The notes: generated from the letters alone by a model not told the origin. DNA of 64,000 nucleotides from Minisyncoccota bacterium (GCA_022841985.1 JALHQL010000006.1:16-64015), one strand, 5' to 3'; positions 41,172 through 53,760 are shown, numbered from the stretch's first letter. Numbers and translations: made by a program.

Positions 41172-41579
41172 TTGCCCCTACCACTTATAATTGATGCGAT
41201 GAGGGAAACCCAGAGAAAAGGAGACGTCGCTGTTTCGCAAGCGATTGCAACATTTACAAAAGCGGGTTATGACGTCTCTGTTCCCCTTACAGAATCAGCT
41301 GCATATGATTTAATCGTGGAGAGGGACGGATTGATAAAACGGATACAGGTAAAATATTCGACTAGTGGAGAGGTTGACCTTCGTAGAATTCATTCAAACT
41401 CGACTGGGTATGTTGTTAAGAAGCCTAAAAAAGGCGCTTATGATTGGATTTACGTCTTTAAAGCCCTCTCTGAAAAAGAGTATCTTATTATCGACTGCCC
41501 TTTCGGTCGGCGGTCGATAACACCTGGAGTTCAGCATTCTATTAAAGTCGTACTGAAACAATTAGGAGGGGTCGCATAG
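41172..41579 (+). CDS. small PD-(D/E)xK-like nuclease-fold protein (Hjc-type or restriction-endonuclease-like). Tentative.
   Basis: AAYDLIVERDGLIKRIQVKYS fits a D...E-x-K core. Its 3' end overlaps the tRNA-Ser 5' end by about 15 nt. Confidence 0.35.
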   Translation: MPLPLIIDAMRETQRKGDVAVSQAIATFTKAGYDVSVPLTESAAYDLIVERDGLIKRIQVKYSTSGEVDLRRIHSNSTGYVVKKPKKGAYDWIYVFKALSEKEYLIIDCPFGRRSITPGVQHSIKVVLKQLGGVA

Positions 41580-41653
41580 TTGGTCTAGTGCAGTGGACTT
41601 GAAATCCACCGTACCGTAAGGTACCGCGAGTTCGAATCTCGCCCCCTCCGCCA
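41565..41653 (+). tRNA. tRNA-Ser (anticodon TGA) with encoded CCA. Integration target of the adjacent island.
   Basis: ggagggg...cccctcc acceptor, anticodon loop ctTGAaa, long variable arm cgtaccgtaaggtaccg, T-loop ttcgaat, then gCCA. Confidence 0.85.
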
Positions 41654-43147
41654 AAATTGGAAATCGGAATTGGAAGCCGAAATGGGGTCGGCGCGAAGCG
41701 CCGACACAAACGCATTCCCGCCAAGAATTCCCGAATTCAAAAGGTTTTTCCACGCTCCGCGTGGCTCAAAAAAGACGGTTCGATCCTTAATTTGAAAGTT
41801 CGAACCGACTTTTTTGTACAAATGAAGTTTTTCTTCATTTGTACACTCGTTTGCCAATTCCATATTGTATTTCAAAAACTTTTCGGTAAGTTCGAACCGA
41901 TTATTCGCTTTTTGCTCAAAAGCCGATAATTTCTCTTTGAGAAGCTGTTTAGAGCTAACCAAGGCATTTTTGGCGTCGCGATATTCTTCGAGCGACAAAG
42001 CGTTTTCGAGATAAGCATTCATCAGCTTCTCAATCTTGGAATTCAAAAGAGAAATATCGGCTTTTGTTTTGTCTGCAAAAAGCGTAGACGATTGGGCTTC
42101 ACTCAACATATCTTTTCTATTTTCCGCCAACATCCAAGAAGCCCAATCGTCGGGCAAAGAAACTTTTTTGATTTCCTTTTGAATTTCTGAAGTGATGATT
42201 TCTTCGCGACTATACTTTTGTGCGCAAGGATTTTTCCGTTTGGTACATCGCAAATAGTTATGACCTTTCTGCGTTTCGGTGGTAATGAAGCAACCACATT
42301 CTCCGCAACGGAAAAATCCTCTGTACAAAAATGGTTTCAATCCTCGCGACTTCGGTTTAGATTTTCTCATCATCACTTCCTGAACAAAATCAAAAAGTTT
42401 CTTTGTGATAATCGGTTCGTGCTTTCCCTCAAAAATCTCACCATTATATTTCATCAGTCCTGTATAGATAGGATTTTTGAGAAGTTTTTGATAATTCGAC
42501 ACCGCAAGTTCCTTTCCGCTTTTTCGTTTCAATCCAAGTCCGTTAAATTTGTCGCGAAGCTCCCGCAAAGTGAAAGACCCAGACGAATATGCCTCAAATG
42601 TTTTCTTGATTAAGGGTGCGATATTTTTATCAACAACAATTCTCCCGCCGACATTTAGATAGCCAAGTGGAGACATTTGAGGCCATATTCCGTCTTTCAC
42701 TTTGTTTCGCTTACCACGCTTTATATTCTCACTAAGGTTATCTACATAATACTTGGATTGCGAAAAAGCGATGGAAAGCATGAATTTGCCTTGCGGTGTC
42801 GGATCACACCAGAAAGTTGGAAATTTTAGCTCGGCAAGTTTTTCCGTATCGAGCAAGTAGATAATTTTTCCACCATCAACACTATTTCTCGCCAATCTGT
42901 CGGGATGCCATGCCAAAATCCCATTTGCTTCGCCTTGCTCGATACGGAGAAGCATTTCATTAAATACTGGCCGACCTGGTGCTTTAGCAGTTTGTTTCTC
43001 TACAAAAATATCTACCACCTCGATTTGTTCTTTAACCGCCAACTCTTTGAGTTCGGCCAGTTGATCGGAAATGCTTCTCACTTGCCGATCCTCTGTATCG
43101 GTTGATTTGCGAGTGTATATAAAAAACTTTCTGGTGTGATTATTCAT
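41585..43147 (-). CDS. large serine recombinase (resolvase/invertase catalytic domain, recombinase domain, zinc ribbon)
   Basis: FIYTRKSTDTEDRQVRSISDQ (catalytic Ser region), GILAWHPDRLARN, zinc ribbon CGECGCF...YLRC. Start trimmed to MNNHTRKFF at 43147. The open frame continues through IR1-L and antisense through the tRNA, so the true C-terminus is uncertain. Confidence 0.8.
   Translation of the reverse strand: MNNHTRKFFIYTRKSTDTEDRQVRSISDQLAELKELAVKEQIEVVDIFVEKQTAKAPGRPVFNEMLLRIEQGEANGILAWHPDRLARNSVDGGKIIYLLDTEKLAELKFPTFWCDPTPQGKFMLSIAFSQSKYYVDNLSENIKRGKRNKVKDGIWPQMSPLGYLNVGGRIVVDKNIAPLIKKTFEAYSSGSFTLRELRDKFNGLGLKRKSGKELAVSNYQKLLKNPIYTGLMKYNGEIFEGKHEPIITKKLFDFVQEVMMRKSKPKSRGLKPFLYRGFFRCGECGCFITTETQKGHNYLRCTKRKNPCAQKYSREEIITSEIQKEIKKVSLPDDWASWMLAENRKDMLSEAQSSTLFADKTKADISLLNSKIEKLMNAYLENALSLEEYRDAKNALVSSKQLLKEKLSAFEQKANNRFELTEKFLKYNMELANECTNEEKLHLYKKVGSNFQIKDRTVFFEPRGAWKNLLNSGILGGNAFVSALRADPISASNSDFQFWRRGRDSNSRYLTVRWISSPLH
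41648..41767. repeat. IR1-L, a 120-bp inverted repeat whose outer end is the tRNA-Ser 3' terminus (CCGCCA)
   Basis: Exact reverse complement of 43170-43289, checked base by base. Confidence 0.9.
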
Positions 43148-43169
43148 AATATTGTATTGGCAAACGAGT

Positions 43170-43289
43170 GAGCCACGCGGAGCGTGGAAAAACCTTTTGA
43201 ATTCGGGAATTCTTGGCGGGAATGCGTTTGTGTCGGCGCTTCGCGCCGACCCCATTTCGGCTTCCAATTCCGATTTCCAATTTTGGCGG
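43170..43289. repeat. IR1-R, inverted copy of IR1-L, ending in GGCGG
   Basis: Perfect 120-bp match to the reverse complement of 41648-41767. Confidence 0.9.
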
Positions 43290-43558
43290 TGTGTATTGGA
43301 CGAAGTTCGAATGTATTTCGGACAAAATCCGCAGGATTTTGACGACTAATCGCACGCGCGGAGCGCGTGGTGGCTTGAAACTGCATTGTACGCTCCGATA
43401 CTGTGCCAACACGAACGAATGCGCCTCGGACACGCTCGCGGACTCGCGTGTGCAAAAACCAAAAAATTTCCTTGCATTTTTCTCGCGTCTCCTCCCCCCA
43501 CCCCTCCACCGCGAAGCGGAAAAAGAAATGGAAAGGAAATTTTTGGTTTTGCTTCGCC
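43285..43558. repeat. IR2-L, a 274-bp structured repeat starting at the shared GGCGG core
   Basis: Reverse complement matches 49219-49492 almost exactly. It has internal hairpins (cacgcgc-gga-gcgcgtg, caaaatcc-gcag-ggattttg) and an internal inverted copy of ggaaatttttggtttt. The ORFs predicted inside it are artefacts of repeat DNA. Confidence 0.85.
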
Positions 43559-43662
43559 GTAGCCATAACAATATTATTTTGCACACTTGTATTATAACTT
43601 AACATTGAGTCAAAACACAAGAGAGTGCTATAATTAACCATGTTGATAAGTTTTTATATAAT

Positions 43663-43872
43663 ATGGCAAAATCCACAGCACAAAAATTTGGTGAGAACAT
43701 GAAAAAGATACGGCTCGAAAAAGGTATGTCGCAAGGCGACATTTGCCGTGAGTTAGGGTTAGACCGAGCGTATATTAGTAATGTTGAGAATGGCAAACAA
43801 AATCTTACCATTAGCACAATGGAAAAGGTCGCCAAGGCGCTGAGTGTGAGTATTGATATACTTCTGAAATAA
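43663..43872 (+). CDS. XRE/Cro-type HTH protein, probably the controller (C) protein of the restriction-modification system
   Basis: 69 aa. MSQGDICRELGLDRAYISNVENGKQNLTISTMEKVAKAL. Directly upstream of the M and R genes. Palindrome ttgagtcaa lies about 40 nt upstream. Confidence 0.65.
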   Translation: MAKSTAQKFGENMKKIRLEKGMSQGDICRELGLDRAYISNVENGKQNLTISTMEKVAKALSVSIDILLK

Positions 43873-43879
43873 TAATCAT

Positions 43880-45544
43880 ATGGCAAAGTTAAAAGACACC
43901 CCAAAACATGATAGACCTCGCGAGAAATTTCTCGAAAAAGGAAGCGACGCTCTGACCGACAGTGAGTTGTTGGCTATTTTGCTTGGAAGCGGTATCAAAG
44001 GAACCAACGTCAAATTACTTGCACAAAAAATATCTCGAAAATTTGGTGACAAGCTCATGGATGCGACAGTGGAGGATCTCGTACAGATTCCGGGTATCGG
44101 AAATGCCAAAGCTCTGCAAATTGCCTCAATGTTTGCACTGGCAAATCGAATGTATGAAAAGCACAACGGGGATGAGGAGCACAAAGTATTATCGGCGCTT
44201 GATGCAGCACGATTAGTCCCCGAATTAAAAACCGCAAAAAAGGAACATCTGGTTTGTCTTTACCTTAATGCACGAAGTGTATTGGTTCACAAAGAGATTG
44301 TTTCAGTTGGCACATTGGACAAAAGTATTATTCACCCCCGAGAAGTTTTTGCGCCTGGACTTGAAAAGCACGCCGCGAGCGTCATAGTTATTCATAATCA
44401 CCCATCAGGCGACCCTTCACCGAGTGACGAAGATAAACAAGTTGCCGCTCGAATTGTCGAAGCAGGCAAAATTGTCGGTATCAACGTACTTGATTTTCTT
44501 ATTATCGCGGAGCGAGGTGTACACAGCATTCTCGCAGAGTTGCAAAAAGTTGAGCCGAAAGCAACCGATTATGTTGCCGAAGGCAACCAAGGATCACTTT
44601 TTGATCTGCTTGTGGATTCTCGCCATATGTATTTTCTCGGAGTAAACGATAAAGCACCCGAACCTATAACAAAAACCAAACATAAGTTTATCGATCTCTT
44701 TGCAGGTATTGGTGGTTTCCATGTTGCCTTTCATAATGCGGGCGCTGAATGTGTGTTTGTGTCCGAATGGGACGAAAAAGCGCGAACTACGTACAGACAC
44801 AACTTTTATAAAGTATCTCCCGATATATTTAGAAATGGCAATTTCGTTGGCGATATCACTAAGGTGAACGAAAAAGAAATGCCTGATTTTGACATCATTA
44901 CGGGCGGCTTTCCTTGCCAGCCATTTTCACAAGCAGGTTTCAAGAAAGGTTTTAATGAAGCACGCGGCACATTGTTTTTTGATGTAGTTCGCCTTATGAA
45001 AGAAAAGAAACCTAAGGCATTTTTCCTTGAAAACGTGCGGGGTCTTTACGCACACGATGGAGGAAAAACATTTGAAACAATTAAGCGCATCATTGAAGAA
45101 GATCTCGGCTATTCATTCCATGCAAAAATCATTAAAGCATCAGATTTTGGTATGCCACAACACCGTCCGCGTTTGTTTATGGTCGGTTTCAGGGACGGAC
45201 ATGATTTTGAATGGCCCGAACCAGTCAATGAATTGAAATACACAATGTCCGATATTTTCGGTGGAAAGTGTAATAAAGATGTCGGCTTTACACTTCGTGT
45301 AGGAGGTCGCGGAAGCCAGATCACTGATCGACGCAACTGGGACGCGTATCGCGTGGATGGAAAAGTAGTCCAGCTCGGACCTAAAGAGGGCTTGAAAATG
45401 CAAGGATTCCCCGAGTGGTTTGAGTTTCCTGAAGATGTATCGTCAGTACAGTCTATGAAGCAGCTCGGCAACTCTGTCGCTGTACCTGCAATTCAAGCTG
45501 TTGCGGAAAGAATAATTGAAACACTAGAAAAATATGACAAATAA
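43880..45544 (+). CDS. fusion protein of an N-terminal RadC-like JAB/MPN domain and a C-terminal C5 cytosine DNA methyltransferase
   Basis: RadC HhH (VQIPGIGNAKALQI) and JAMM motif (IVIHNHPSGDPSPSDED). MTase motifs I FIDLFAGIGGFHVAF, IV GGFPCQPFSQAG, VI ENVRGL, VIII QHRPRLFMVGF, X KQLGNSVAVP. Confidence 0.8.
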   Translation: MAKLKDTPKHDRPREKFLEKGSDALTDSELLAILLGSGIKGTNVKLLAQKISRKFGDKLMDATVEDLVQIPGIGNAKALQIASMFALANRMYEKHNGDEEHKVLSALDAARLVPELKTAKKEHLVCLYLNARSVLVHKEIVSVGTLDKSIIHPREVFAPGLEKHAASVIVIHNHPSGDPSPSDEDKQVAARIVEAGKIVGINVLDFLIIAERGVHSILAELQKVEPKATDYVAEGNQGSLFDLLVDSRHMYFLGVNDKAPEPITKTKHKFIDLFAGIGGFHVAFHNAGAECVFVSEWDEKARTTYRHNFYKVSPDIFRNGNFVGDITKVNEKEMPDFDIITGGFPCQPFSQAGFKKGFNEARGTLFFDVVRLMKEKKPKAFFLENVRGLYAHDGGKTFETIKRIIEEDLGYSFHAKIIKASDFGMPQHRPRLFMVGFRDGHDFEWPEPVNELKYTMSDIFGGKCNKDVGFTLRVGGRGSQITDRRNWDAYRVDGKVVQLGPKEGLKMQGFPEWFEFPEDVSSVQSMKQLGNSVAVPAIQAVAERIIETLEKYDK

Positions 45545-46625
45545 AACTAAAACAACTCTCACAGGTAACAAAGGCGAATGGTCTGAGTTCTATGCCTTTA
45601 TTAAAATCCTGACTGACGGGAAAGTTTTTACTGCTGACAAAAATCTAAAAATCCTTGAGGAACATTTTCATATTGTCCTAAAAATTATCCGACAAGAAGC
45701 GATTGGAAAGAAAGAATACGACATCTCAAGAAACGATGGCAAAGTTATTGTATCTGATGAAAATGCAGAGATATCAATAATTGATCTTGAAAAAATCAAA
45801 GGGAGTGTCGCCAACGTTTTTGAGCAAATTAAAAATTCCAAAGGCACGACATTTGAAGTCGCGAGCGCGGCAAGTCCGATGCACGATCTTCACTGTACTC
45901 AAATGCGTGCTTCGAGTGGTAAAAAAGCCGACTTGACCATTGTTCTGCATGATAAAAAATCTCCCGAATTCCCAGAACTCGGTTTCAGTATCAAATCAAT
46001 GCTCGGTTCTCCGGCAACACTCCTAAATGCTTCTGGTGCTACAAATTTTCTATACCGCATTGCAACAGAAGATAATAAGCCCGTACAAAGTAGTGATGAT
46101 ATGTCGGTGAGAGATGCGACAAAACTGACGTATGGTGTCGGTGCACAACTTGAGTTTATTGGAATGGATAGCGATGTTTTCCGTCGTAATCTGCGAAAAA
46201 TTGATTCCATATTTCCCGAAATAGTTGCTCAAATGTTGCGACATTACTACATGGGAGAAGCGACTACAATCAATGATCTCGCAAACAAAATTGCAGATGA
46301 TTCCGTCTTTATGGAGCGAATCGACTTTACCAAAGAAATGCTGATAATGAACATCAAACGTTTCCTATCAAGCATTGCCCTCGGAATGATGCCAAGCAAA
46401 GATTGGGACGGATACACCGAAGCGCATGGCGGATATATCATCGTTAAAGAAGACGGTGATGTTGTCTGCTACCATCTCTATAACCGCGACAAATTTGAGG
46501 ACTATCTATTCCATAACACAAAACTCGATACGCCTAGCACTACTCGTCATGGATTTGGGAAAATCTATAAAGAAAATGACGAACAAAGAATGAAGCTTAA
46601 TTTACAAATACGATTTTTGAAATAA
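45534..46625 (+). CDS. probable cognate type II restriction endonuclease (363 aa). Family not assignable by eye; an HpaII-like family is possible.
   Basis: Start overlaps the MTase stop (ATGACAAATAA). Size and position fit an R gene. No catalytic motif is confidently identified. Confidence 0.45.
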   Translation: MTNKTKTTLTGNKGEWSEFYAFIKILTDGKVFTADKNLKILEEHFHIVLKIIRQEAIGKKEYDISRNDGKVIVSDENAEISIIDLEKIKGSVANVFEQIKNSKGTTFEVASAASPMHDLHCTQMRASSGKKADLTIVLHDKKSPEFPELGFSIKSMLGSPATLLNASGATNFLYRIATEDNKPVQSSDDMSVRDATKLTYGVGAQLEFIGMDSDVFRRNLRKIDSIFPEIVAQMLRHYYMGEATTINDLANKIADDSVFMERIDFTKEMLIMNIKRFLSSIALGMMPSKDWDGYTEAHGGYIIVKEDGDVVCYHLYNRDKFEDYLFHNTKLDTPSTTRHGFGKIYKENDEQRMKLNLQIRFLK

Positions 46626-46803
46626 AAAATTGCCAGATGTTGTGTAAGCAAGACAATCGAACGAAGTTGGGGAAATAAGCCACAAAGCGAAAAGTGCTTG
46701 ATTTGTATTGATAAGAGAGTAATCCTTACTTTGGCGCTTGACTCCTTATTTTAAGGCGCGTATAATAGATACGCGGTTATTTATTTTACTTATCAATCAA
46801 TTT

Positions 46804-47031
46804 ATGGAAGAAAAATCATCGGTAAATAAGTCAAAAATTGAGAAAAAGATGAACGTTATCATTTCTTTGCTTTTGAAAATTGCAAATGATGGGGGTACGG
46901 TAAGTCTAAAAGAGCAAGTGCGTGACCTTGCCTCATTTGGTTTGGATTCAGCAGAGATTGCCGAAATTACAGGTAAAAAGGTGGGGCATGTTAGTAAAGA
47001 ATTATCAGTATTAAAAAAGGAGAGTAAATAG
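46804..47031 (+). CDS. mini HTH protein 1 (75 aa), first of four tandem paralogs
   Basis: MNVIISLLLKIA...FGLDSAEIAEITGKKVGHVSKEL. Lrp/AsnC-like or sigma70-region-4-like HTH. Confidence 0.5.
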   Translation: MEEKSSVNKSKIEKKMNVIISLLLKIANDGGTVSLKEQVRDLASFGLDSAEIAEITGKKVGHVSKELSVLKKESK

Positions 47032-47034
47032 CCT

Positions 47035-47256
47035 ATGGAAAACAAAAATGACATTTTACAACAAGTCTCGAAGAAACTGAGTATTTTAATCGCACTCCAG
47101 CTTCAGGGTGAGAATAAAGTGGTTGAGGTAAAAGAAAACGTGGAAAAACTTTCCAGATTCGGACTTACAGACAGTGAGATCGCAGAAATCCTCGGCACCA
47201 CAGCAGGTACCGTATCAGTTGCTAAAGCTAGAATTAAAAAAGCTAGATCAAAATAA
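47035..47256 (+). CDS. mini HTH protein 2 (73 aa)
   Basis: LSILIALQLQGE...FGLTDSEIAEILGTTAGTVSVAKARIKK. Starts 3 nt after the paralog 1 stop. Confidence 0.5.
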   Translation: MENKNDILQQVSKKLSILIALQLQGENKVVEVKENVEKLSRFGLTDSEIAEILGTTAGTVSVAKARIKKARSK

Positions 47257-47259
47257 AGT

Positions 47260-47436
47260 ATGGCAAAGAATAAACAAAATCGTGATCCCCTTGAAGACGT
47301 GCGAGAAACTCTAAAAAGTATTCTCGTACTAGAATTATTTAAGTTAAATATTCCGCAGGTGGATATTGCTAAAAAGTTGCGAATGGACTTAAACGCGGTG
47401 AATGCCTTCCTGAAAGGAATTAAGAAAGATAAATAA
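47260..47436 (+). CDS. mini HTH protein 3 (58 aa)
   Basis: LKSILVLELFKLNIPQVDIAKKLRMDLNAVNAFLKGI. Below the ORF-track size cutoff. atg at 47260, taa at 47434-47436. Confidence 0.4.
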   Translation: MAKNKQNRDPLEDVRETLKSILVLELFKLNIPQVDIAKKLRMDLNAVNAFLKGIKKDK

Positions 47437-47437
47437 T

Positions 47438-47602
47438 ATGGGTAGAAAAACTAAAAGCGAAAAACTGGAGCCTTTGGAGGAGATTAAACGACTACTTGTT
47501 CTCGGGCTTATAAATCAGGGCGTAAAAGGAAAAGACATCGCCGCCATTCTGGAGGTTGATCCAGCAATTATTAGTCGTTTGATTTCATCTACGAAAAAAT
47601 AG
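47438..47602 (+). CDS. mini HTH protein 4 (54 aa)
   Basis: IKRLLVLGLINQGVKGKDIAAILEVDPAIISRLI. atg at 47438, 1 nt after the paralog 3 stop. Confidence 0.4.
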   Translation: MGRKTKSEKLEPLEEIKRLLVLGLINQGVKGKDIAAILEVDPAIISRLISSTKK

Positions 47603-47605
47603 TAT

Positions 47606-48184
47606 ATGGCAGACCGACTCAACCCCGACATTATGGAGGTACTCGTTAAGAAGACGGATAAGACAGCCGAACAAATTCGTCCGCGCCTCTCTGAACTTCG
47701 TCGCAAGTATAGCGGTCTCACAATGAACGCTGCTGCTCAGATGTACGCACAATCGCACGGCACTTCCATTATGACGAAGCTTGACCAAGGCGACCGACAA
47801 TCGCTCGCTACGGTACAAGCAATTACTCAAGTGAGCGTATCCAGCGTTTCAAAGGTAGATAAACGCACGCTAAATATAAATAACTCGCCGATACATAACC
47901 TTTCATTTGGTGACCGAAATCAAATAAATCAAAGTGTTGTGACGCTCGACAATGCACTCACTGAGTTATCTGAAAAAATCAGCAAAAGCACAGTACTGAC
48001 TGACGACGAAAAGAATGACTACAAGTCTGATATACAAACTATTGCAAGTCAGGCTGGAAAAAGTAAACCGAACAGGCAAATCATCAAAGTAGCATGGGAG
48101 AGCGTTAAGGCGCTTGCGGACATAGAAGGCTTTGCCCAATTGGTCGGCAGGATTACTCCGCTTATTCAAGGATTTTTTTCATAA
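47606..48184 (+). CDS. hypothetical protein (192 aa), upstream partner of the HEPN-like protein
   Basis: Stop at 48184, next start at 48186. The N-terminus resembles the mini-HTH proteins weakly. Confidence 0.45.
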   Translation: MADRLNPDIMEVLVKKTDKTAEQIRPRLSELRRKYSGLTMNAAAQMYAQSHGTSIMTKLDQGDRQSLATVQAITQVSVSSVSKVDKRTLNINNSPIHNLSFGDRNQINQSVVTLDNALTELSEKISKSTVLTDDEKNDYKSDIQTIASQAGKSKPNRQIIKVAWESVKALADIEGFAQLVGRITPLIQGFFS

Positions 48185-48185
48185 T

Positions 48186-48887
48186 ATGTCTCAACGCCTT
48201 GATCCAATTCTATTAAAGAAACTTGCCGATAAAATTGGTAAGTCCATCAAATATACGCGCGAGCAAAATGCCAAACGTGCTTCAAGAGCGGGCGTTTCTT
48301 CCGAAGCCTATTTTTTATATTGGCTGAAAGAAAAGAAAATTGGCTTTCAAAAGTACAAGCGTTCTTTGCCTGTTGATGTTCAAAACGAAGCAAGAACACT
48401 CACAGGCACTCCACAACACACAACAAGCACCACATCTAATCGTGTGGGACACACCGAAACACTCACTGCTTCATCGCGCTATATCGATTTACTCGAAATG
48501 ATTCAGGATGATGAGCTTAGAGATAGATGTGCGGATCTTATAAAACGACCAAGGAATCATGACAGAGTTTTTAGAGAAGCCACAACTATTCTTGAACATC
48601 GGGTCAAGAATTTGAGTGGTATTACACAAAGAATGAACCCGCAAGCATTAATTGGGAAAGCAATTGCGCCTGATCCTGCGCGAGCTATTTTAGTGGTCAG
48701 CAGTGATTCCAGTGAGCAAGAAGGTTTTTACAAAATTTGCGCTGGTATTGAAGCAGCATTCCGCAACCGCACCCATCATGAAGTCTCGAACAAGCTCACA
48801 CGTAATGACGCGATAAAATTTTGTGGCTTCATTGACTCACTGTTACTTGTGCTTGTTAATGCAGAAGTACATCAAGAACGGATTTAG
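48186..48887 (+). CDS. protein with a C-terminal HEPN-like (Abi_C / TIGR02391-like) domain. Candidate abortive-infection RNase.
   Basis: C-terminal EQEGFYKICAGIEAAFRNRTHHE contains R-x4-H. Start atg at 48186. Confidence 0.45.
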   Translation: MSQRLDPILLKKLADKIGKSIKYTREQNAKRASRAGVSSEAYFLYWLKEKKIGFQKYKRSLPVDVQNEARTLTGTPQHTTSTTSNRVGHTETLTASSRYIDLLEMIQDDELRDRCADLIKRPRNHDRVFREATTILEHRVKNLSGITQRMNPQALIGKAIAPDPARAILVVSSDSSEQEGFYKICAGIEAAFRNRTHHEVSNKLTRNDAIKFCGFIDSLLLVLVNAEVHQERI

Positions 48888-49218
48888 CTAAAGGGAGCCG
48901 TCCACGTCAGTGGACGGGCTTCTGTGCGCGCATAGGGTGGGTGGGGCAAGCACATACAGATTTGTTTGTGCCCTAGCACAATCCATTTTTCTTTGAGTAA
49001 CTACTAACCTCTCTCGAAGTCACTGAGCGAACGCACACAACGCCGAAGCAGCCAGCGCGAGCGAATGCGAGCGGGCTATGTGTAGGCGGTTGTGTGTGTT
49101 CGCGGACGTTAGAGCTACTACTAAACGTCGCTATGGCACGCGCCTCGGTCGCCACAAGGAAATGGAGCAAACGGGCTTCAATGTGATAACTTTGTTGCCC
49201 TTTGTGGAGTTTCCTTGT

Positions 49219-49492
49219 GGCGAAGCAAAACCAAAAATTTCCTTTCCATTTCTTTTTCCGCTTCGCGGTGGAGGGGTGGGGGGAGGAGACGCGAGAAAAA
49301 TGCAAGGAAATTTTTTGGTTTTTGCACACGCGAGTCCGCGAGCGTGTCCGAGGCGCATTCGTTCGTGTTGGCACAGTATCGGAGCGTACAATGCAGTTTC
49401 AAGCCACCACGCGCTCCGCGCGTGCGATTAGTCGTCAAAATCCTGCGGATTTTGTCCGAAATACATTCGAACTTCGTCCAATACACACCGCC
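49219..49492. repeat. IR2-R, inverted copy of IR2-L, ending in CCGCC followed by A
   Basis: 274 bp. Base-by-base reverse complement of 43285-43558. Confidence 0.85.
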
Positions 49493-49672
49493 AGAAGTCC
49501 GAGTTAGAACCAAAGCAAAGTAAGGGTTTTAATACAACTAAACTCAAAATAAAACATCCATCTAAAATATGGGTGTTTTGCTTATTGGTGGCACTTATCC
49601 ACAATAGGGCACTTTACAAGAAAGAGATAATTGTATAGGATCATACTATCACTTAACAGCTATCATTAATTT

Positions 49673-51340
49673 ATGAAAAACACCGAGGAAAATAAAATTG
49701 AAACAATAGACATTACTCCCGATAAAAGCATTTATCACAAAATCGGGGAGGCAAATTACTCGATTTCTGACGCACTCGCAGAATTAGTGGATAACTCAAT
49801 TGATGCCGCAAATGACAATGGTGTCGAGATTTATATCGTTTTAGACAAGAAAGACGAGAAAATTGTCATTGAGGACAATGGAAAGGGAATGAGCAAAGAA
49901 ATAGCTTCAAAAAGCTTGGTACTAGCCCATTCTAAAAAGCACGAGGCACTAGGTGAATTCGGTTTGGGACTAAAGTCCGCATGCACCAGTTTAGGAACAA
50001 TCTTTTCTATAACAAGTACACCTGAAGGTTCTGAAGAAAGATACTCTCTTGAATATAATAAGGAACAATTTTTAAAATCAGATGACTGGCATCATTACCC
50101 TCTCGCAATATCAAAAGCTCCAAAAAATGAACACGGAACAAGAATAGAAATCAGTAATTTGCGAATAAAATTATATGACGCTCAAGTAACACGTCTCAAG
50201 GATGACTTAGCTAAAAGATATGGACCATACATTGAACACAACAATGTTGTCATTAAAGTTGGTTTAAAAAGAGAGACGGCAAAGCCTTGTGTGCCAAGTG
50301 AAATTAAACTCGTTGAAGGTTCGAAGAAAGAATTTTCATACATGCTCTCAAAAGGAGCCACCATTACAGGTTGGTATGGTTTATCAGAGGTCGGATCACA
50401 AAAACAAAGTGGTTTTAATATGTTTCGTAGGGGGCGTCTTATACGATCATCGGAAAAGCTTGGTTATAATTACCACCCACATCTAATGAGTATTGTCGGA
50501 GAAATTAATTTGGACTCCGTCCCAGTCACACATAACAAACGAGAATTTATTATTGAATCAGGGGAATTCAAAGAGTTTATTAAAGAATTCTGGGGTGATC
50601 AGACCGAGAAATATTTAGGCCAAAAAGTGAAGGGAATGATTGATGAAGTAACAAAGACAGCTAGAGATCGATCAAACCAAGAAAAAGCTGATAGCATGCC
50701 GACTGAAAAGAAAGAGACTATAAAAAATAACTTATTGAATGCTCTTAACCGACTAGACGAATTCAAAGAGCTGGCCTATCCAGATCTGTATCAACCTAAA
50801 AAAAGGTCTGCGAGCGGAAAAGAGGACCCAAAAGAATCAAGAGAAACTGATTTACGTGTAGCCAGGGAGGAAGAAATCAAACCTACAAAAGAGGAGGAGA
50901 GGGATCAGAGAACGCCCAAAAAAACACAACCAAAAACGGCCAAATTTATCATGGTTGGTGGAAAAAAATTCAAATTCGATTTCTTTTTGAAGAATTTGGC
51001 AAATGACACCATCGACAAAGAGACAGTTATCAATCAGGAAAACGTTATTGAAATATACATTAATACGGGATTTAAAGGTTACGGCTTGACGAAAGATTCT
51101 GATTTTTATTCTACTTTCCACATAGCAGAGGCGATTGCTGAACTTTATGTTAAAGAAGCTGGTCAAAAAATGGAAAGGGTCTTTGAATTACGAAACGGTC
51201 TTATATATGAAGTGGCGTCGTTAATCTATGAAGAAGAAGAGTATAAGAAACTAGAGAAGACTGAAAAAGAACTAGTCGCAGTAACTGAAAAGAGGAAAGA
51301 GTTGGAAGAAAAAAGAACAAGAACAAGTTTAAAAATATAA
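49673..51340 (+). CDS. GHKL-superfamily ATPase (HATPase_c_3, prokaryotic MORC-like) with a charged coiled C-terminal region
   Basis: N-box ELVDNSIDA, G1 IEDNGKGM, G2 GEFGLGLKSA. Confidence 0.75.
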   Translation: MKNTEENKIETIDITPDKSIYHKIGEANYSISDALAELVDNSIDAANDNGVEIYIVLDKKDEKIVIEDNGKGMSKEIASKSLVLAHSKKHEALGEFGLGLKSACTSLGTIFSITSTPEGSEERYSLEYNKEQFLKSDDWHHYPLAISKAPKNEHGTRIEISNLRIKLYDAQVTRLKDDLAKRYGPYIEHNNVVIKVGLKRETAKPCVPSEIKLVEGSKKEFSYMLSKGATITGWYGLSEVGSQKQSGFNMFRRGRLIRSSEKLGYNYHPHLMSIVGEINLDSVPVTHNKREFIIESGEFKEFIKEFWGDQTEKYLGQKVKGMIDEVTKTARDRSNQEKADSMPTEKKETIKNNLLNALNRLDEFKELAYPDLYQPKKRSASGKEDPKESRETDLRVAREEEIKPTKEEERDQRTPKKTQPKTAKFIMVGGKKFKFDFFLKNLANDTIDKETVINQENVIEIYINTGFKGYGLTKDSDFYSTFHIAEAIAELYVKEAGQKMERVFELRNGLIYEVASLIYEEEEYKKLEKTEKELVAVTEKRKELEEKRTRTSLKI

Positions 51341-51341
51341 A

Positions 51342-52754
51342 ATGAGTCAGACCCTTAAGCGAGCAAACGAATATTTTGGGGTAACTGAGTCTGACTATAA
51401 GAAGACTGGCGCATTTAATCCGGTCATCGGTGTAGACAGCTTATTTTTTGTAGATCCGCTACTGCTCTCTAAAACAAGAATACCTGAGTTCAAGGATGCT
51501 CAAAAAGAGGTGCGTGATTATTTTGCTAGTGTCATCACACTTATCAGAAGTGGTAATCAAAAAGCAAAAGCACTAGCTCACAAGAAACTTATTTTAAGAG
51601 AGGTTAGGGGTATCGGCATAGGTTACGGTAGTACATCTGATGATGGTTCCGCCATTGGTCCAAAACTTGCAAAACGTTTGTTAAATACTGCAGAGGAACT
51701 CATCCAGATGGGTATTACCGATCCAGCCATCTTTGAAGTCATGGGTCTTTTTGAGGAAGATTTTGGGCCAGATCGACTTAGTGACGGCTTGACACGCATT
51801 CTTCTCAAACGCGTCTGCCAATATTCTGAACGAATCACGAAAGAACTCAAAATTATAGATACATATACACTAACTACTTATGAGAGAAAGTACACTCTAA
51901 CAAAACACCCCCTTAAAGATGGGCCTTTGCTTTTCGTGCCCCAAGGCATATTGCGAGATCTCCCGATAGCGAATAGTTTTGAGGAGATTAGTGTAGTTGC
52001 AATTTTTAATGAAGATCTGAGAAAGAAATTTAATTCTATTCTGGCATCCTGTTTTGCTGGAGATAAAAATAAAAAGCCCAAGAAATCTGAAATTAAGAAA
52101 TATCTCCTAGAAACGAAAGATGGAATCAAAACAGTTGTTGCGGCATATCAGTCATGTAGTCCTGAATCGTATAATTTTGACACCGATCCTTCTGGTTTAT
52201 ATCTGTGGCTTGAGAAAGCAAAACAGTTAGCTCGTGAGAACCCAATTTCACTTCCATCAAAACCAAAACAAGGTGATATTGATGATGTGGTACAGAAAGT
52301 TATACAGGCATTTAAAAGAGGAATTGAATCTAAGGGTTGGTGGAAATCACTTTATAACGAGAGTAAGGAATCACTGAATGAAAGCCACGCAAGACATTTC
52401 TTTTATGCAACCGCGCTCTTGTATTGCGAAGCATGTGATATTGATATTTCACCCGAATCAAATGCTGGTCAAGGTCCAGTAGATTTCAAATTGAGCCGTG
52501 GTCACAAAAAGATAGTTGTTGAAATAAAATTAACTTCAGGACATGTTCGACAAGGTTATGAAAAACAAACACGAATATATGAAGAAAGTGAAGATGCTGA
52601 AGCTAGTTATTTCCTTGTTGTTCAAGTAACAGAGAAAAGTAAAGTTCTGCAAAAGGTGCTTAAAATGGAGGAAGTGGAAGAAAAGGAGGGTAAAAAACAC
52701 CCGACAATCGTAGTTGTGGATGGGCGAGAGAAACCGTCAGCAAGTCACGCCTAG
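51342..52754 (+). CDS. partner protein (470 aa) with a C-terminal PD-(D/E)xK nuclease-like motif
   Basis: GQGPVDFKLSRGHKKIVVEIKLTSG fits PD...(E)xK. Start is 2 nt after the GHKL stop. Confidence 0.5.
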   Translation: MSQTLKRANEYFGVTESDYKKTGAFNPVIGVDSLFFVDPLLLSKTRIPEFKDAQKEVRDYFASVITLIRSGNQKAKALAHKKLILREVRGIGIGYGSTSDDGSAIGPKLAKRLLNTAEELIQMGITDPAIFEVMGLFEEDFGPDRLSDGLTRILLKRVCQYSERITKELKIIDTYTLTTYERKYTLTKHPLKDGPLLFVPQGILRDLPIANSFEEISVVAIFNEDLRKKFNSILASCFAGDKNKKPKKSEIKKYLLETKDGIKTVVAAYQSCSPESYNFDTDPSGLYLWLEKAKQLARENPISLPSKPKQGDIDDVVQKVIQAFKRGIESKGWWKSLYNESKESLNESHARHFFYATALLYCEACDIDISPESNAGQGPVDFKLSRGHKKIVVEIKLTSGHVRQGYEKQTRIYEESEDAEASYFLVVQVTEKSKVLQKVLKMEEVEEKEGKKHPTIVVVDGREKPSASHA

Positions 52755-52924
52755 TCATATTTACTTTTCAATAGAATAATCAACTGCATTTTGCCCTTTA
52801 TCTGAGTTTGGTTTAGGCGTCTCAAACCACTCCGGATGCTCCTTATGCATTTTCCTCAGTTTTTGTATACTTGTATCAAGAATCCAGAAATTAAAGCGTC
52901 TTTTTGGTTCTAATTTCGGGACAT

Positions 52925-53106
52925 CGTCACCGCCGCGAAGCGGAAAAAGAGGAAAGGAAATTTTTGGTTTGCCTGCGCGAGTCCGCGAGCGCGGTCGAGG
53001 CGCGTTCCAGCGCAATCGGAGCGTACGCTTCGGGTTCAAGCCACCACGCGCTCCGCGCGTGCGAAGTGGGTTCGAGCAAAGGTGATACACTCACCGCCTC
53101 AAAAGA
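52925..53106. repeat. third, degenerate IR2-family copy, ending in CACCGCC
   Basis: cgcgaagcggaaaaagaggaaaggaaatttttggttt...gcgcgagtccgcgagcg...ccaccacgcgctccgcgcgtgcg...caccgcc aligns to IR2 with indels. Confidence 0.6.
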
Positions 53107-53196
53107 AGATATTGAGTGCGCTGAAGTGGTTGCAGCTTGTACACAAAAACGCACAGAACAATTCTGCCGTGCCATACTCTCTGCTATTATTCCCTC

Positions 53197-53670
53197 ATGA
53201 CTCGCGAAGCGATTTTAGAATGGAAAGGAAGAGAATACGATCATAATCCCAAAAGCGCCGATTGGTATTGGGCACTTGGCATCATTGCGGTCGCCGGCAC
53301 TATAGCAGCAATACTTTTCGGCAGTTACCTGATCGCGATGCTCATTGTCATCGCAACAGTATCGATCGCACTCCACGCCGCAAAACAACCACCCCTGCAT
53401 CGCTTTCGTCTTGTCGAGCAAGGCATCGTCATCGGCGACGAGCTGCATCCTTTTGCACGAATGACCTCCTTCTCTGTGCTTGAAGACATCGAGGGAACGC
53501 TCCCTCCGATGATTTCCATAAAAACTGATAGTTGGCTCTCGCCGCACCTCGTCATTCCGCTTGAGGGTGTTGATGTTGATATGGTATATGCCTACTTCCT
53601 CCATCATGTTGATGAAGAAGCCCACCATCACACGTTCGTCGATTTGGTGGCGGCGTGGCTCAGATTCTGA
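53197..53670 (+). CDS. two-TM membrane protein with a His-rich C-terminus
   Basis: WYWALGIIAVAGTIAAILFGSYLIAMLIVIATVSIALHAA. Start MTREAIL at 53197. Confidence 0.4.
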   Translation: MTREAILEWKGREYDHNPKSADWYWALGIIAVAGTIAAILFGSYLIAMLIVIATVSIALHAAKQPPLHRFRLVEQGIVIGDELHPFARMTSFSVLEDIEGTLPPMISIKTDSWLSPHLVIPLEGVDVDMVYAYFLHHVDEEAHHHTFVDLVAAWLRF

Positions 53671-53685
53671 TATACATTCACTATT

Positions 53686-53760
53686 GCCCCCGTCGTTCAA
53701 CGGATAGGACGCGAGCTTGCGGAGTTCGTAATCGAGGTTCGATTCCTCGCGGGGGCACCA
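53686..53760 (+). tRNA. tRNA-Arg (anticodon read as GCG) with encoded CCA
   Basis: Acceptor gcccccg/cgggggc, D-arm gttc/ggac, anticodon loop ttGCGga (G37), T-arm cgagg-ttcgatt-cctcg, then aCCA. Confidence 0.6.

Follow-up and report, generated by a model that had tools for sequence, protein, structure and literature searches.

The staphylococcal cassette chromosome (SCC) elements (SCCmec, Ccr) combine a large serine recombinase with targeting of the 3′ end of a conserved housekeeping gene via a short core, regenerate their docking site, accrete in tandem, and carry resistance as well as anti-phage defence cargo. Tycheposons and other tRNA islands likewise bring variable cargo and tandem arrays to tRNA 3′ ends in streamlined genomes, mostly with tyrosine recombinases and direct repeats of the tRNA end. 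Here, we analyze a stretch of 64,000 nt from a Minisyncoccota bacterium (GCA_022841985.1, JALHQL010000006.1:16-64015; hereafter "the window") in which an island at the 3′ end of a tRNA-Ser gene carries a cargo cassette between two long inverted repeat arms, Y and Y′ (inverted repeat 2, IR2). The original prediction, made from the sequence of the window, had described these arms as structured inverted repeats that bracket a defence cassette and had proposed that they are either the ends of a mobilisable defence-gene unit or structured RNA elements. Based on their sequence contexts across genomes of the Candidate Phyla Radiation (CPR; Patescibacteria), we think it probable that the Y arms are the ends of exchangeable, occasionally inverted cargo cassettes in recombinase-associated, tRNA-integrated CPR islands. 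Functionally, such islands appear closest to the SCC-type islands, with other tRNA cargo islands also close.

The anatomy of the arms was observed directly in the window (Table 1). Self-BLAST aligned 43284-43558 with 49493-49219 at 275/275 identical positions (E = 2.5e-144), in agreement with the near-perfect reverse complementarity that had been described, and a repeat search extended the pair to 278 nt (43281-43558 / 49219-49496) with a single mismatch at 49494; a repeat of this length cannot have arisen by chance in 64 kb. Each arm also contains the internal inverted duplication that had been noticed, in the form of a ggaaatttttggttt motif pair of 25 nt with 80% complementarity and 45 nt spacing, and matches to this motif number 7 against 0.29 expected. 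The open reading frames (ORFs) inside the arms had been set aside as repeat artefacts, and rightly so: Their translations are identical low-complexity strings rich in Arg and Cys, and they are not genes because the frames are not kept across the family alignment. A third, rearranged copy had been reported as well, and the Y profile matched it at 52932-53075 on the minus strand (E = 4e-34) with the outer terminus near 53098; this copy is truncated at GCGGCGGTG, inside the loop of the long hairpin, where it contacts the neighbouring MORC cassette (see below). These are the only three Y copies in the window, and all of them lie within the island (about 41-53 kb; GC content 39-44% versus roughly 50% outside). 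An independent Logan contig (L001, SRR22388336) covers 43531-48972 at 100% identity and starts 28 nt inside the arm, which fits a true repeat. At its other side, the same contig ends at 48972, which is not at the repeat and lies within a non-coding element that we call preY, suggesting a second branch point (a preY copy or a strain variant) in that sample.

The cassette that had been delimited by the arms turned out to be part of a larger unit, which also comprises a recombinase gene with an inverted repeat of its own and the 3′ end of tRNA-Ser. The last 6 nt of this tRNA gene, CCGCCA (41648-41653), form the left boundary of the island and, at the same time, the first bases of a second perfect inverted repeat (IR1; arms X and X′) that the original prediction had missed. 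IR1 spans 121 nt with 100% complementarity, brackets the recombinase gene, and abuts the left Y arm with an overlap of 5-9 nt (TTTTGGCGG). The recombinase displays the hallmarks of large serine recombinases, i.e., a catalytic resolvase domain (Resolvase PF00239, 1.9e-20), a recombinase domain (Recombinase PF07508, 9.7e-14), and a zinc ribbon (Zn_ribbon_recom PF13408, 2.1e-6), contains the motif YTRKST, and is only distantly related to SPbeta SprA/YokA and the A118 integrase (relatives in the PDB). Its residues 460-506 are encoded in X and can still be aligned with homologues of 42% identity, and the ORF is complete in either orientation since either IR1 arm completes it. At the far end of Y′, the tRNA 3′ end is repeated as CCGCCA (49488-49493) in direct orientation relative to 41648-41653, so that this core is found at both ends of the island; terminal core copies also exist in other loci. 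Because the core measures only 4-9 nt, the direct repeat alone is weak evidence.

The distribution of Y was studied by searching a one-genome-per-species collection with a 20-mer common to all three window copies (GGAGCGCGTGGTGGCTTGAA). Matches were found in at least 118 genome stretches, nearly all of them in CPR/Patescibacteria bins of many classes, and many of the matches listed are within about 100 nt of contig ends. Y was further found in 112 metagenome loci, and an iterated profile retrieved 203 copies in 170 loci of the genome and metagenomic sets combined, with 44 copies cut by contig ends. Conservation falls sharply at both ends of the unit of around 270 nt. The 20-mer is absent from IMG/VR viral contigs, and Y has no match in plasmid or phage collections.

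Y is therefore common across the CPR, yet the genes next to it, which would vary at random around an ordinary intergenic repeat, are highly ordered. The recurrent layout starts at the tRNA 3′ end and continues with a repeat arm, the recombinase gene (with its 3′ end toward the tRNA), the second repeat arm, Y, a helix-turn-helix (HTH) gene followed by cargo and preY, and finally an inverted Y. Of the full-length recombinase genes with enough flank, 48/49 lie between the arms of an inverted repeat that measures at least 50 nt (median length 120 nt, median identity 100%), including 13 whose proteins are merely 37-50% identical to that of the window. Neighbouring Y copies are arranged head-to-head in 27 of 33 pairs, and the median identity of arms is 99.2% within a locus versus 91.9% between loci. 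The recombinase adjoins Y in most loci from metagenomes and in at least 20 from genomes, and it resides at a tRNA-Ser 3′ end in about 29 of 30 related metagenome loci. While the clade of the window recombinase (79-96% identity) targets tRNA-Ser genes with at least 5 anticodons and once tRNA-Asp, distant clades target Ala, Leu, Glu, and Ser tRNAs. The same architecture was found in a closed chromosome of 993 kb (locus L074), and tandem modules are present in L095 and L064, with the arms of L064 being identical only over the inner 212 nt and carrying outer segments of different types. In loci without a recombinase, a short perfect palindrome lies between the tRNA end and Y; in several of them, it corresponds to the outer part of both X arms and looks like a deletion footprint. 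Additional segments with perfect or near-perfect inverted repeats were seen at L054:3267-4813 and L064:22-1721 (arms of 99 nt and 235 nt, with 1.2-1.35 kb between them), where they form chains of three repeat-bounded segments beside the recombinase module.

Y itself consists of two parts. The outer 45-80 nt exist in at least four variants, and each variant starts with the reverse-complemented 3′ end of a tRNA, i.e., TGGCGG going with tRNA-Ser ...CCGCCA, TGGTGG going with tRNAs ending in ...CCACCA, and GCGG going with tRNA ends ...TCCGC. As a general rule across loci, the outer terminus of Y is the reverse complement of the 3′ end of the target tRNA, and the distal terminus of the island repeats this tRNA end. 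The inner part of around 210 nt is a nearly universal series of hairpins that includes a nearly invariant block, CGCACGCGCGGAGCGCGTGGTGGCTTGAA. Hairpin H4 has a conserved loop on at least six different stems among copies, and H5 is a long AT-rich hairpin whose arms show compensatory changes between subfamilies. RNAalifold on a mixed MAFFT alignment recovered just 14 pairs and a helix scan of the same alignment was uninformative, both because the subfamilies are out of register in the alignment, and copies were therefore folded individually. In this way, 8 divergent representatives yielded a common fold of H4 and H5 that is more stable than shuffled sequences (z = -3.3 to -5.9). The loops of H1 (GGA versus TCC) and H5 (C-rich versus G-rich) occur in both orientations among copies (e.g., L095:1591-1832, L096:1727-1954, and L102:2361-2616). 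No strand asymmetry was detected for H5 (-27.9 versus -27.7 kcal/mol) or for H1-H4 (-36.3 versus -36.3), and the numbers of G-T pairs are equal. Since the strands fold equally well, the structure of Y fits DNA hairpins on either strand no less than RNA.

The cargo between the HTH gene and preY differs from locus to locus and includes TdeIII and MvaI/BcnI restriction-modification systems, AbiEii, an aminoglycoside phosphotransferase (APH) with an Erm-type methylase, a deaminase with a methyltransferase and DUF5680, a Panacea-domain antitoxin, and a peptidase. The part of the original prediction that saw Y as the end of a cassette is thus supported by its invariable position around variable cargo, adjacent to a large serine recombinase gene and a tRNA, and by homology breaks exactly at the inner end of the arm, whereas its restriction to defence genes was too narrow. 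We observed these breaks directly: Among close relatives, similarity to the window is lost at the inner end of Y (43560) in L144, L130, and L189 and at the HTH stop codon (43872) in L162 and L146, while homology on the right-hand side breaks at 48885-48923. L114 illustrates the pattern on both sides, sharing with the window only 43424-43872 (inner half of Y plus HTH gene) and 48885-49353 (preY plus inner half of Y′) around cargo unrelated to that of the window. HTH and recombinase identities are uncoupled as well, with 95% identity of the recombinase found alongside 39% for the HTH protein in one comparison and 86% alongside 94% in another. A homologue of the HTH gene occupies the position just internal to Y in about 19 genome loci and in many loci from metagenomes. 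PreY was found in 9-24 genome loci as well as in many of the metagenomic ones; it invariably lies internal to the arm at the end opposite the HTH gene, and some loci lack its middle third.

Orientation varies between genomes, the only level at which differences were seen. Judged by the order of HTH gene and preY, L130, L205, and L054 carry the cassette the other way round with respect to the recombinase, and L104 and L054 have a flipped recombinase segment. Among loci that share cargo, none carries it in opposite orientation relative to the recombinase. A gapped pattern search of JGI metagenomes for the flipped state of the strain studied here came back empty, which is uninformative as the strain is perhaps absent there.

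How could such islands be assembled? According to the mechanism that we propose, the recombinase would insert the unit at the 3′ end of a tRNA gene via the short CCGCC(A) core, with the outer part of Y, which is specific to the type of recombinase and tRNA, as the segment that it likely recognizes. The copy of the tRNA end on the distal arm would recreate the docking site and allow further cassettes, such as the MORC cassette, to accrete. Recombination of the inverted arms with each other would keep them identical and occasionally flip the cassette, while recombination at or within arms would swap cassettes between platforms. The universal core may mark the swap point; it might serve as a binding site for a conserved factor (possibly the HTH protein) or as an insulator of transcription. 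We infer both the action of the recombinase at these junctions and a role of the hairpin core, for which we favour a function at the DNA level as cassette boundary or recombination module.

Several results weigh against this proposal of exchangeable cassettes. Neither excised forms nor empty sites nor circular junctions were recovered (the expected empty site being CCCCCTCCGCCA joined to GAAGTCCGAG), and dyad symmetry at the Y′/X junction, as expected of a serine-integrase att site, did not exceed that of shuffled controls. One orientation clearly dominates (about 20 to 3 for the cargo and >40 to 2 for the recombinase), which implies that free inversion does not occur or that one state is selected. 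The loci without recombinase keep palindromic footprints instead of clean junctions, which looks like decay and not like precise excision. Furthermore, the proposal does not explain why the island retains, in its interior, an inverted copy of the junction of its ends (X′/Y), and it assigns the universal core of 210 nt no more than a tentative function.

The most serious competitor is the idea that the arms provide nothing but homology: Cassettes would move by DNA uptake and RecA-dependent double crossover in Y, like "minimal mobile elements", and the recombinase would move only the platform. CPR bacteria are naturally competent, which counts for this idea, as do the breaks of homology at the inner end of the arms, the presence of the cassette in either orientation, the restriction of arm identity to the inner part in L064 despite different outer types, and an identity of about 92% for the Y core between distant CPR lineages whose recombinases are only 37-45% identical. 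Homologous recombination would, on the other hand, not need hairpins, yet the stems covary around conserved loops; it gives no reason for inverted arms in place of two different sequences, and it leaves the equivalent repeat of the recombinase gene unexplained, so that, while it agrees with most data, we consider it rather unlikely as a full account. A further alternative is a phase-variation switch, in which flips of both the cassette and the recombinase gene, made by the recombinase, would turn defence genes on and off among the cells of a population. Perfect inverted repeats around both segments, a recombinase beside them, and both orientations among genomes agree with such a switch. A flip of the cassette would change no local junction, however, because the arms are identical throughout and a promoter-like site (TTGAGT-18-TATAAT, 43605-43634) lies inside the segment, i.e., within the cassette and outside Y. 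Together with the strong predominance of one orientation and a recombinase ORF that is complete either way round, this makes phase variation quite improbable in our view.

A different class of explanation takes the arm, perhaps together with preY, for the gene of a structured non-coding RNA or for an RNA cis-element that would serve as regulator, guide, or processing signal. The conserved hairpins with their compensatory changes and conserved loops, the stability of the folds relative to shuffled sequences, and a conservation of Y that exceeds that of the neighbouring proteins all speak for this possibility, which had been part of the original prediction. It has not fared well: Neither Y nor preY matched any Rfam 15 family at the gathering threshold, and permissive scans of the window (to E = 5) and of seven other loci (to 0.1) returned tRNAs only. 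There is no convincing promoter in or before Y, both strands fold equally with equal G-T pairs, and hairpin loops in both orientations fit better to DNA palindromes. The hairpins are nevertheless conserved by compensatory change, but we judge an RNA function to be very improbable. Finally, Y could be a product of faulty assembly or a generic intergenic repeat that is dispersed and has no role as boundary. Assemblers apparently struggle with Y, as seen from the many copies at contig ends, but the same architecture in dozens of independent assemblies including the closed chromosome of L074, a Logan contig that reproduces the cassette interior, only three copies in the window that all belong to the island, and ordered neighbours across 170 loci leave hardly any credit to this explanation.

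Comparison with other described systems helps to place the Y islands. They differ from SCC elements by their tRNA target, their CPR hosts, a single recombinase with a perfect repeat of 120 nt around its gene, and perfect inverted ends of around 270 nt with a universal hairpin core where SCC elements have repeats that are short and either direct or imperfectly inverted; a relationship to them at the sequence level was not detected. Tycheposon-type islands, in turn, have neither long perfect inverted repeats nor a universal non-coding module. The serine invertases (Hin, Gin, Cin, Pin) resemble Y islands by having a serine recombinase gene in or beside an inverted-repeat segment that exists in both orientations. 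However, Hin-type systems use small serine recombinases, 26-bp sites, and an enhancer to change the connection of gene and promoter by each flip, unlike Y islands with their repeats of 120-275 nt, a large serine recombinase beside a tRNA, and a flip that leaves the junction unchanged. We therefore did not classify the island as a Hin-type system or inverton, given that repeats and a nearby recombinase were found and a reconnection of promoter or coding sequence by inversion was not.

Integron attC sites share with Y that they bound variable, promoter-proximal cargo by a foldable imperfect palindrome whose structure is kept more than its sequence and that they form arrays beside a recombinase. 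We rejected an identity of Y with integron cassettes or attC since the recombinase is of the serine type (and not a tyrosine IntI) and since Y comes in head-to-head pairs, one inverted pair per cassette instead of one direct attC. Unlike integron cassettes, Y cassettes also have their own regulator and promoter-like site, and the sequence of Y is highly conserved. The yeast 2-micron plasmid (FLP/FRT, 599-bp inverted repeats) would be similar to a Y island excised as a circle, in which two inverted copies of around 390 bp (Y′X and X′Y) would separate a small recombinase region from a large unique region, and all four combinations of cassette and recombinase orientation were seen among genomes. 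In contrast to this plasmid, no circle, origin, or replication function was found for Y islands, and their orientation states are far from equimolar; large serine recombinases are, to our knowledge, not known to recombine identical sites. Ends of miniature inverted-repeat transposable elements or insertion sequences were rejected because the bases flanking the cassette are inverted (TGGCGG...CCGCCA) and not a direct duplication and because no transposase is encoded in or near the cassette, and a dispersed repeat like repetitive extragenic palindromes or bacterial interspersed mosaic elements (REP/BIME) because of three copies in 64 kb within one island and the ordered neighbours of Y. What sets Y islands apart is their CPR host range, the repeat around the recombinase gene, the long inverted ends with a hairpin core, and the backbone of HTH gene and preY. 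The Y module is apparently new to the literature, as no description of it was found in full-text searches, whose coverage is incomplete so that an earlier description is possible.

The CPR/Patescibacteria represent a large share of bacterial diversity with tiny genomes and largely unknown ways of gene exchange. Across at least 118 species-level genomes of many CPR classes, Y would be a single recognizable module that marks swappable defence and resistance cassettes, and it could serve as a search handle for the CPR mobilome and possibly explain many contig breaks in CPR genome bins. The island recombinases are compact serine recombinases with predictable tRNA targets, and the double inverted repeat with its hairpin core is an architecture open to experiment. 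A more far-reaching version of our proposal, which we regard as distinctly unlikely, holds that the nested inverted repeats and the recombinase constitute a CPR-wide platform for cassette exchange with the universal Y hairpin module as a functional transfer signal. In sequence, the two ends of the island (Y′.../...X) are exactly reverse-complementary to its internal X′/Y junction, so that a single-stranded island could fold into two stem-loops with its ends meeting on an internal splint. Such a folded single strand, e.g., from natural transformation, might restore a double-stranded attachment site on which the recombinase could act. If this holds, mobile elements would have a new means of travelling as single-stranded DNA, and organisms in which we know of no conjugative systems would have a route of gene flow.

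Table 1. Features of the Y island in the window (positions counted from the first nucleotide of the 64,000-nt stretch)
Feature	Position	Strand	Evidence or remarks
tRNA-Ser(UGA)	41565..41653	+	ARAGORN, Rfam
Large serine recombinase gene	41585..43147	-	520 aa from ATG at 43147; frame passes through X into the tRNA
IR1 left arm (X)	41648..41768	+	tRNA 3′ end, then 3′-terminal coding region of recombinase gene
IR1 right arm (X′)	43169..43289	-	inverted copy of recombinase 3′ end plus core
IR2 left arm (Y)	43281..43558	+	repeat search, self-BLAST, profile, folding
Y outer segment	to about 43349 (~65 nt)		begins TGGCGG = reverse complement of tRNA 3′ end; varies with recombinase/tRNA type
Y universal core	43350-43558		
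Hairpin H1	43353-43369		
Hairpin H4	43430-43451		
Long hairpin H5	about 43452-43552		
HTH_3 protein, 69 aa	43663..43872	+	Pfam HTH_3 2.8e-16; PADLOC Control_protein 9e-18
Variable cargo of the window cassette	43880..48887	+	Pfam, PADLOC
RadC/JAB-C5 methyltransferase fusion	43880-45544		cargo gene
HpaII-type restriction enzyme			cargo gene
Four small ORFs (97, 73, 58, 54 aa)	46738-47602		cargo
192-aa protein			cargo gene
Hypoth_Ymh protein			cargo gene
preY, hairpin-rich non-coding element (~290 nt)	48921..49209	+	BLAST and profile matches
IR2 right arm (Y′)	49219..49496	-	terminal CACACCGCCA at 49484-49493
Next (MORC) cassette	49497..52926	+	sequence, Pfam, PADLOC
Third Y copy	52927..53100	-	diverged; different outer type (GGCGGTGAGTG...); H5 loop in flipped orientation

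The first gene of the window cassette encodes an HTH_3 protein that resembles control proteins of restriction-modification systems and belongs to the conserved backbone beside Y. In the HpaII-type system that follows, the cytosine-5 methyltransferase is fused at its N-terminus to a RadC-like JAB domain containing helix-hairpin-helix motifs, which is unusual among methylases of restriction-modification systems. The first two of the small ORFs are paralogous (39% identity), and one small ORF has a weak HTH similar to sigma-70 region 4. Exact-protein look-ups of the recombinase, the MORC-like protein, and two host proteins gave no record, and that of the restriction enzyme gave one Logan sample. 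The adjacent MORC cassette begins immediately at the CCGCCA core and comprises genes for a MORC-like GHKL ATPase and its 470-aa partner as well as a small ORF on the minus strand. Its apparent inverted ends of around 25 nt (GAAGTCCGAGTTAGAACCAAAG / CTTTTTGGTTCTAATTTCGGGAC; read by eye) have CACCGCC on each side. Its right end interrupts the H5 loop of the third Y copy, which suggests that this hairpin loop, a mimic of the tRNA-Ser 3′ end (CCCCTCC[A/G]CCGC), may also be a recombination point.

Some further observations concern the surroundings of the island. An ORF of 135 aa (41172-41579) in low-GC DNA overlaps the 5′ end of tRNA-Ser by 15 nt and shows weak similarity to homing endonucleases; it may be part of another element inserted on the opposite side of tRNA-Ser. 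A homologue of the gene at 53137-53670 together with tRNA-Arg(GCG) lies on the 5′ side of tRNA-Ser(UGA) in L144, L018, L068, and L090, whereas the window has the same gene and tRNA (53137-53760) past the distal end of the island. This gives the appearance of an inversion of tRNA-Ser and island relative to the genes at 53137-53760, with hosts too divergent in DNA sequence for a close comparison. Unrelated to Y, the start of the window contains direct repeats, i.e., a 145-nt unit in three copies (14-158, 1739-1883, and 2024-2168) and a 274-nt pair (1602-1875 / 1887-2160) reported as 285 nt apart.

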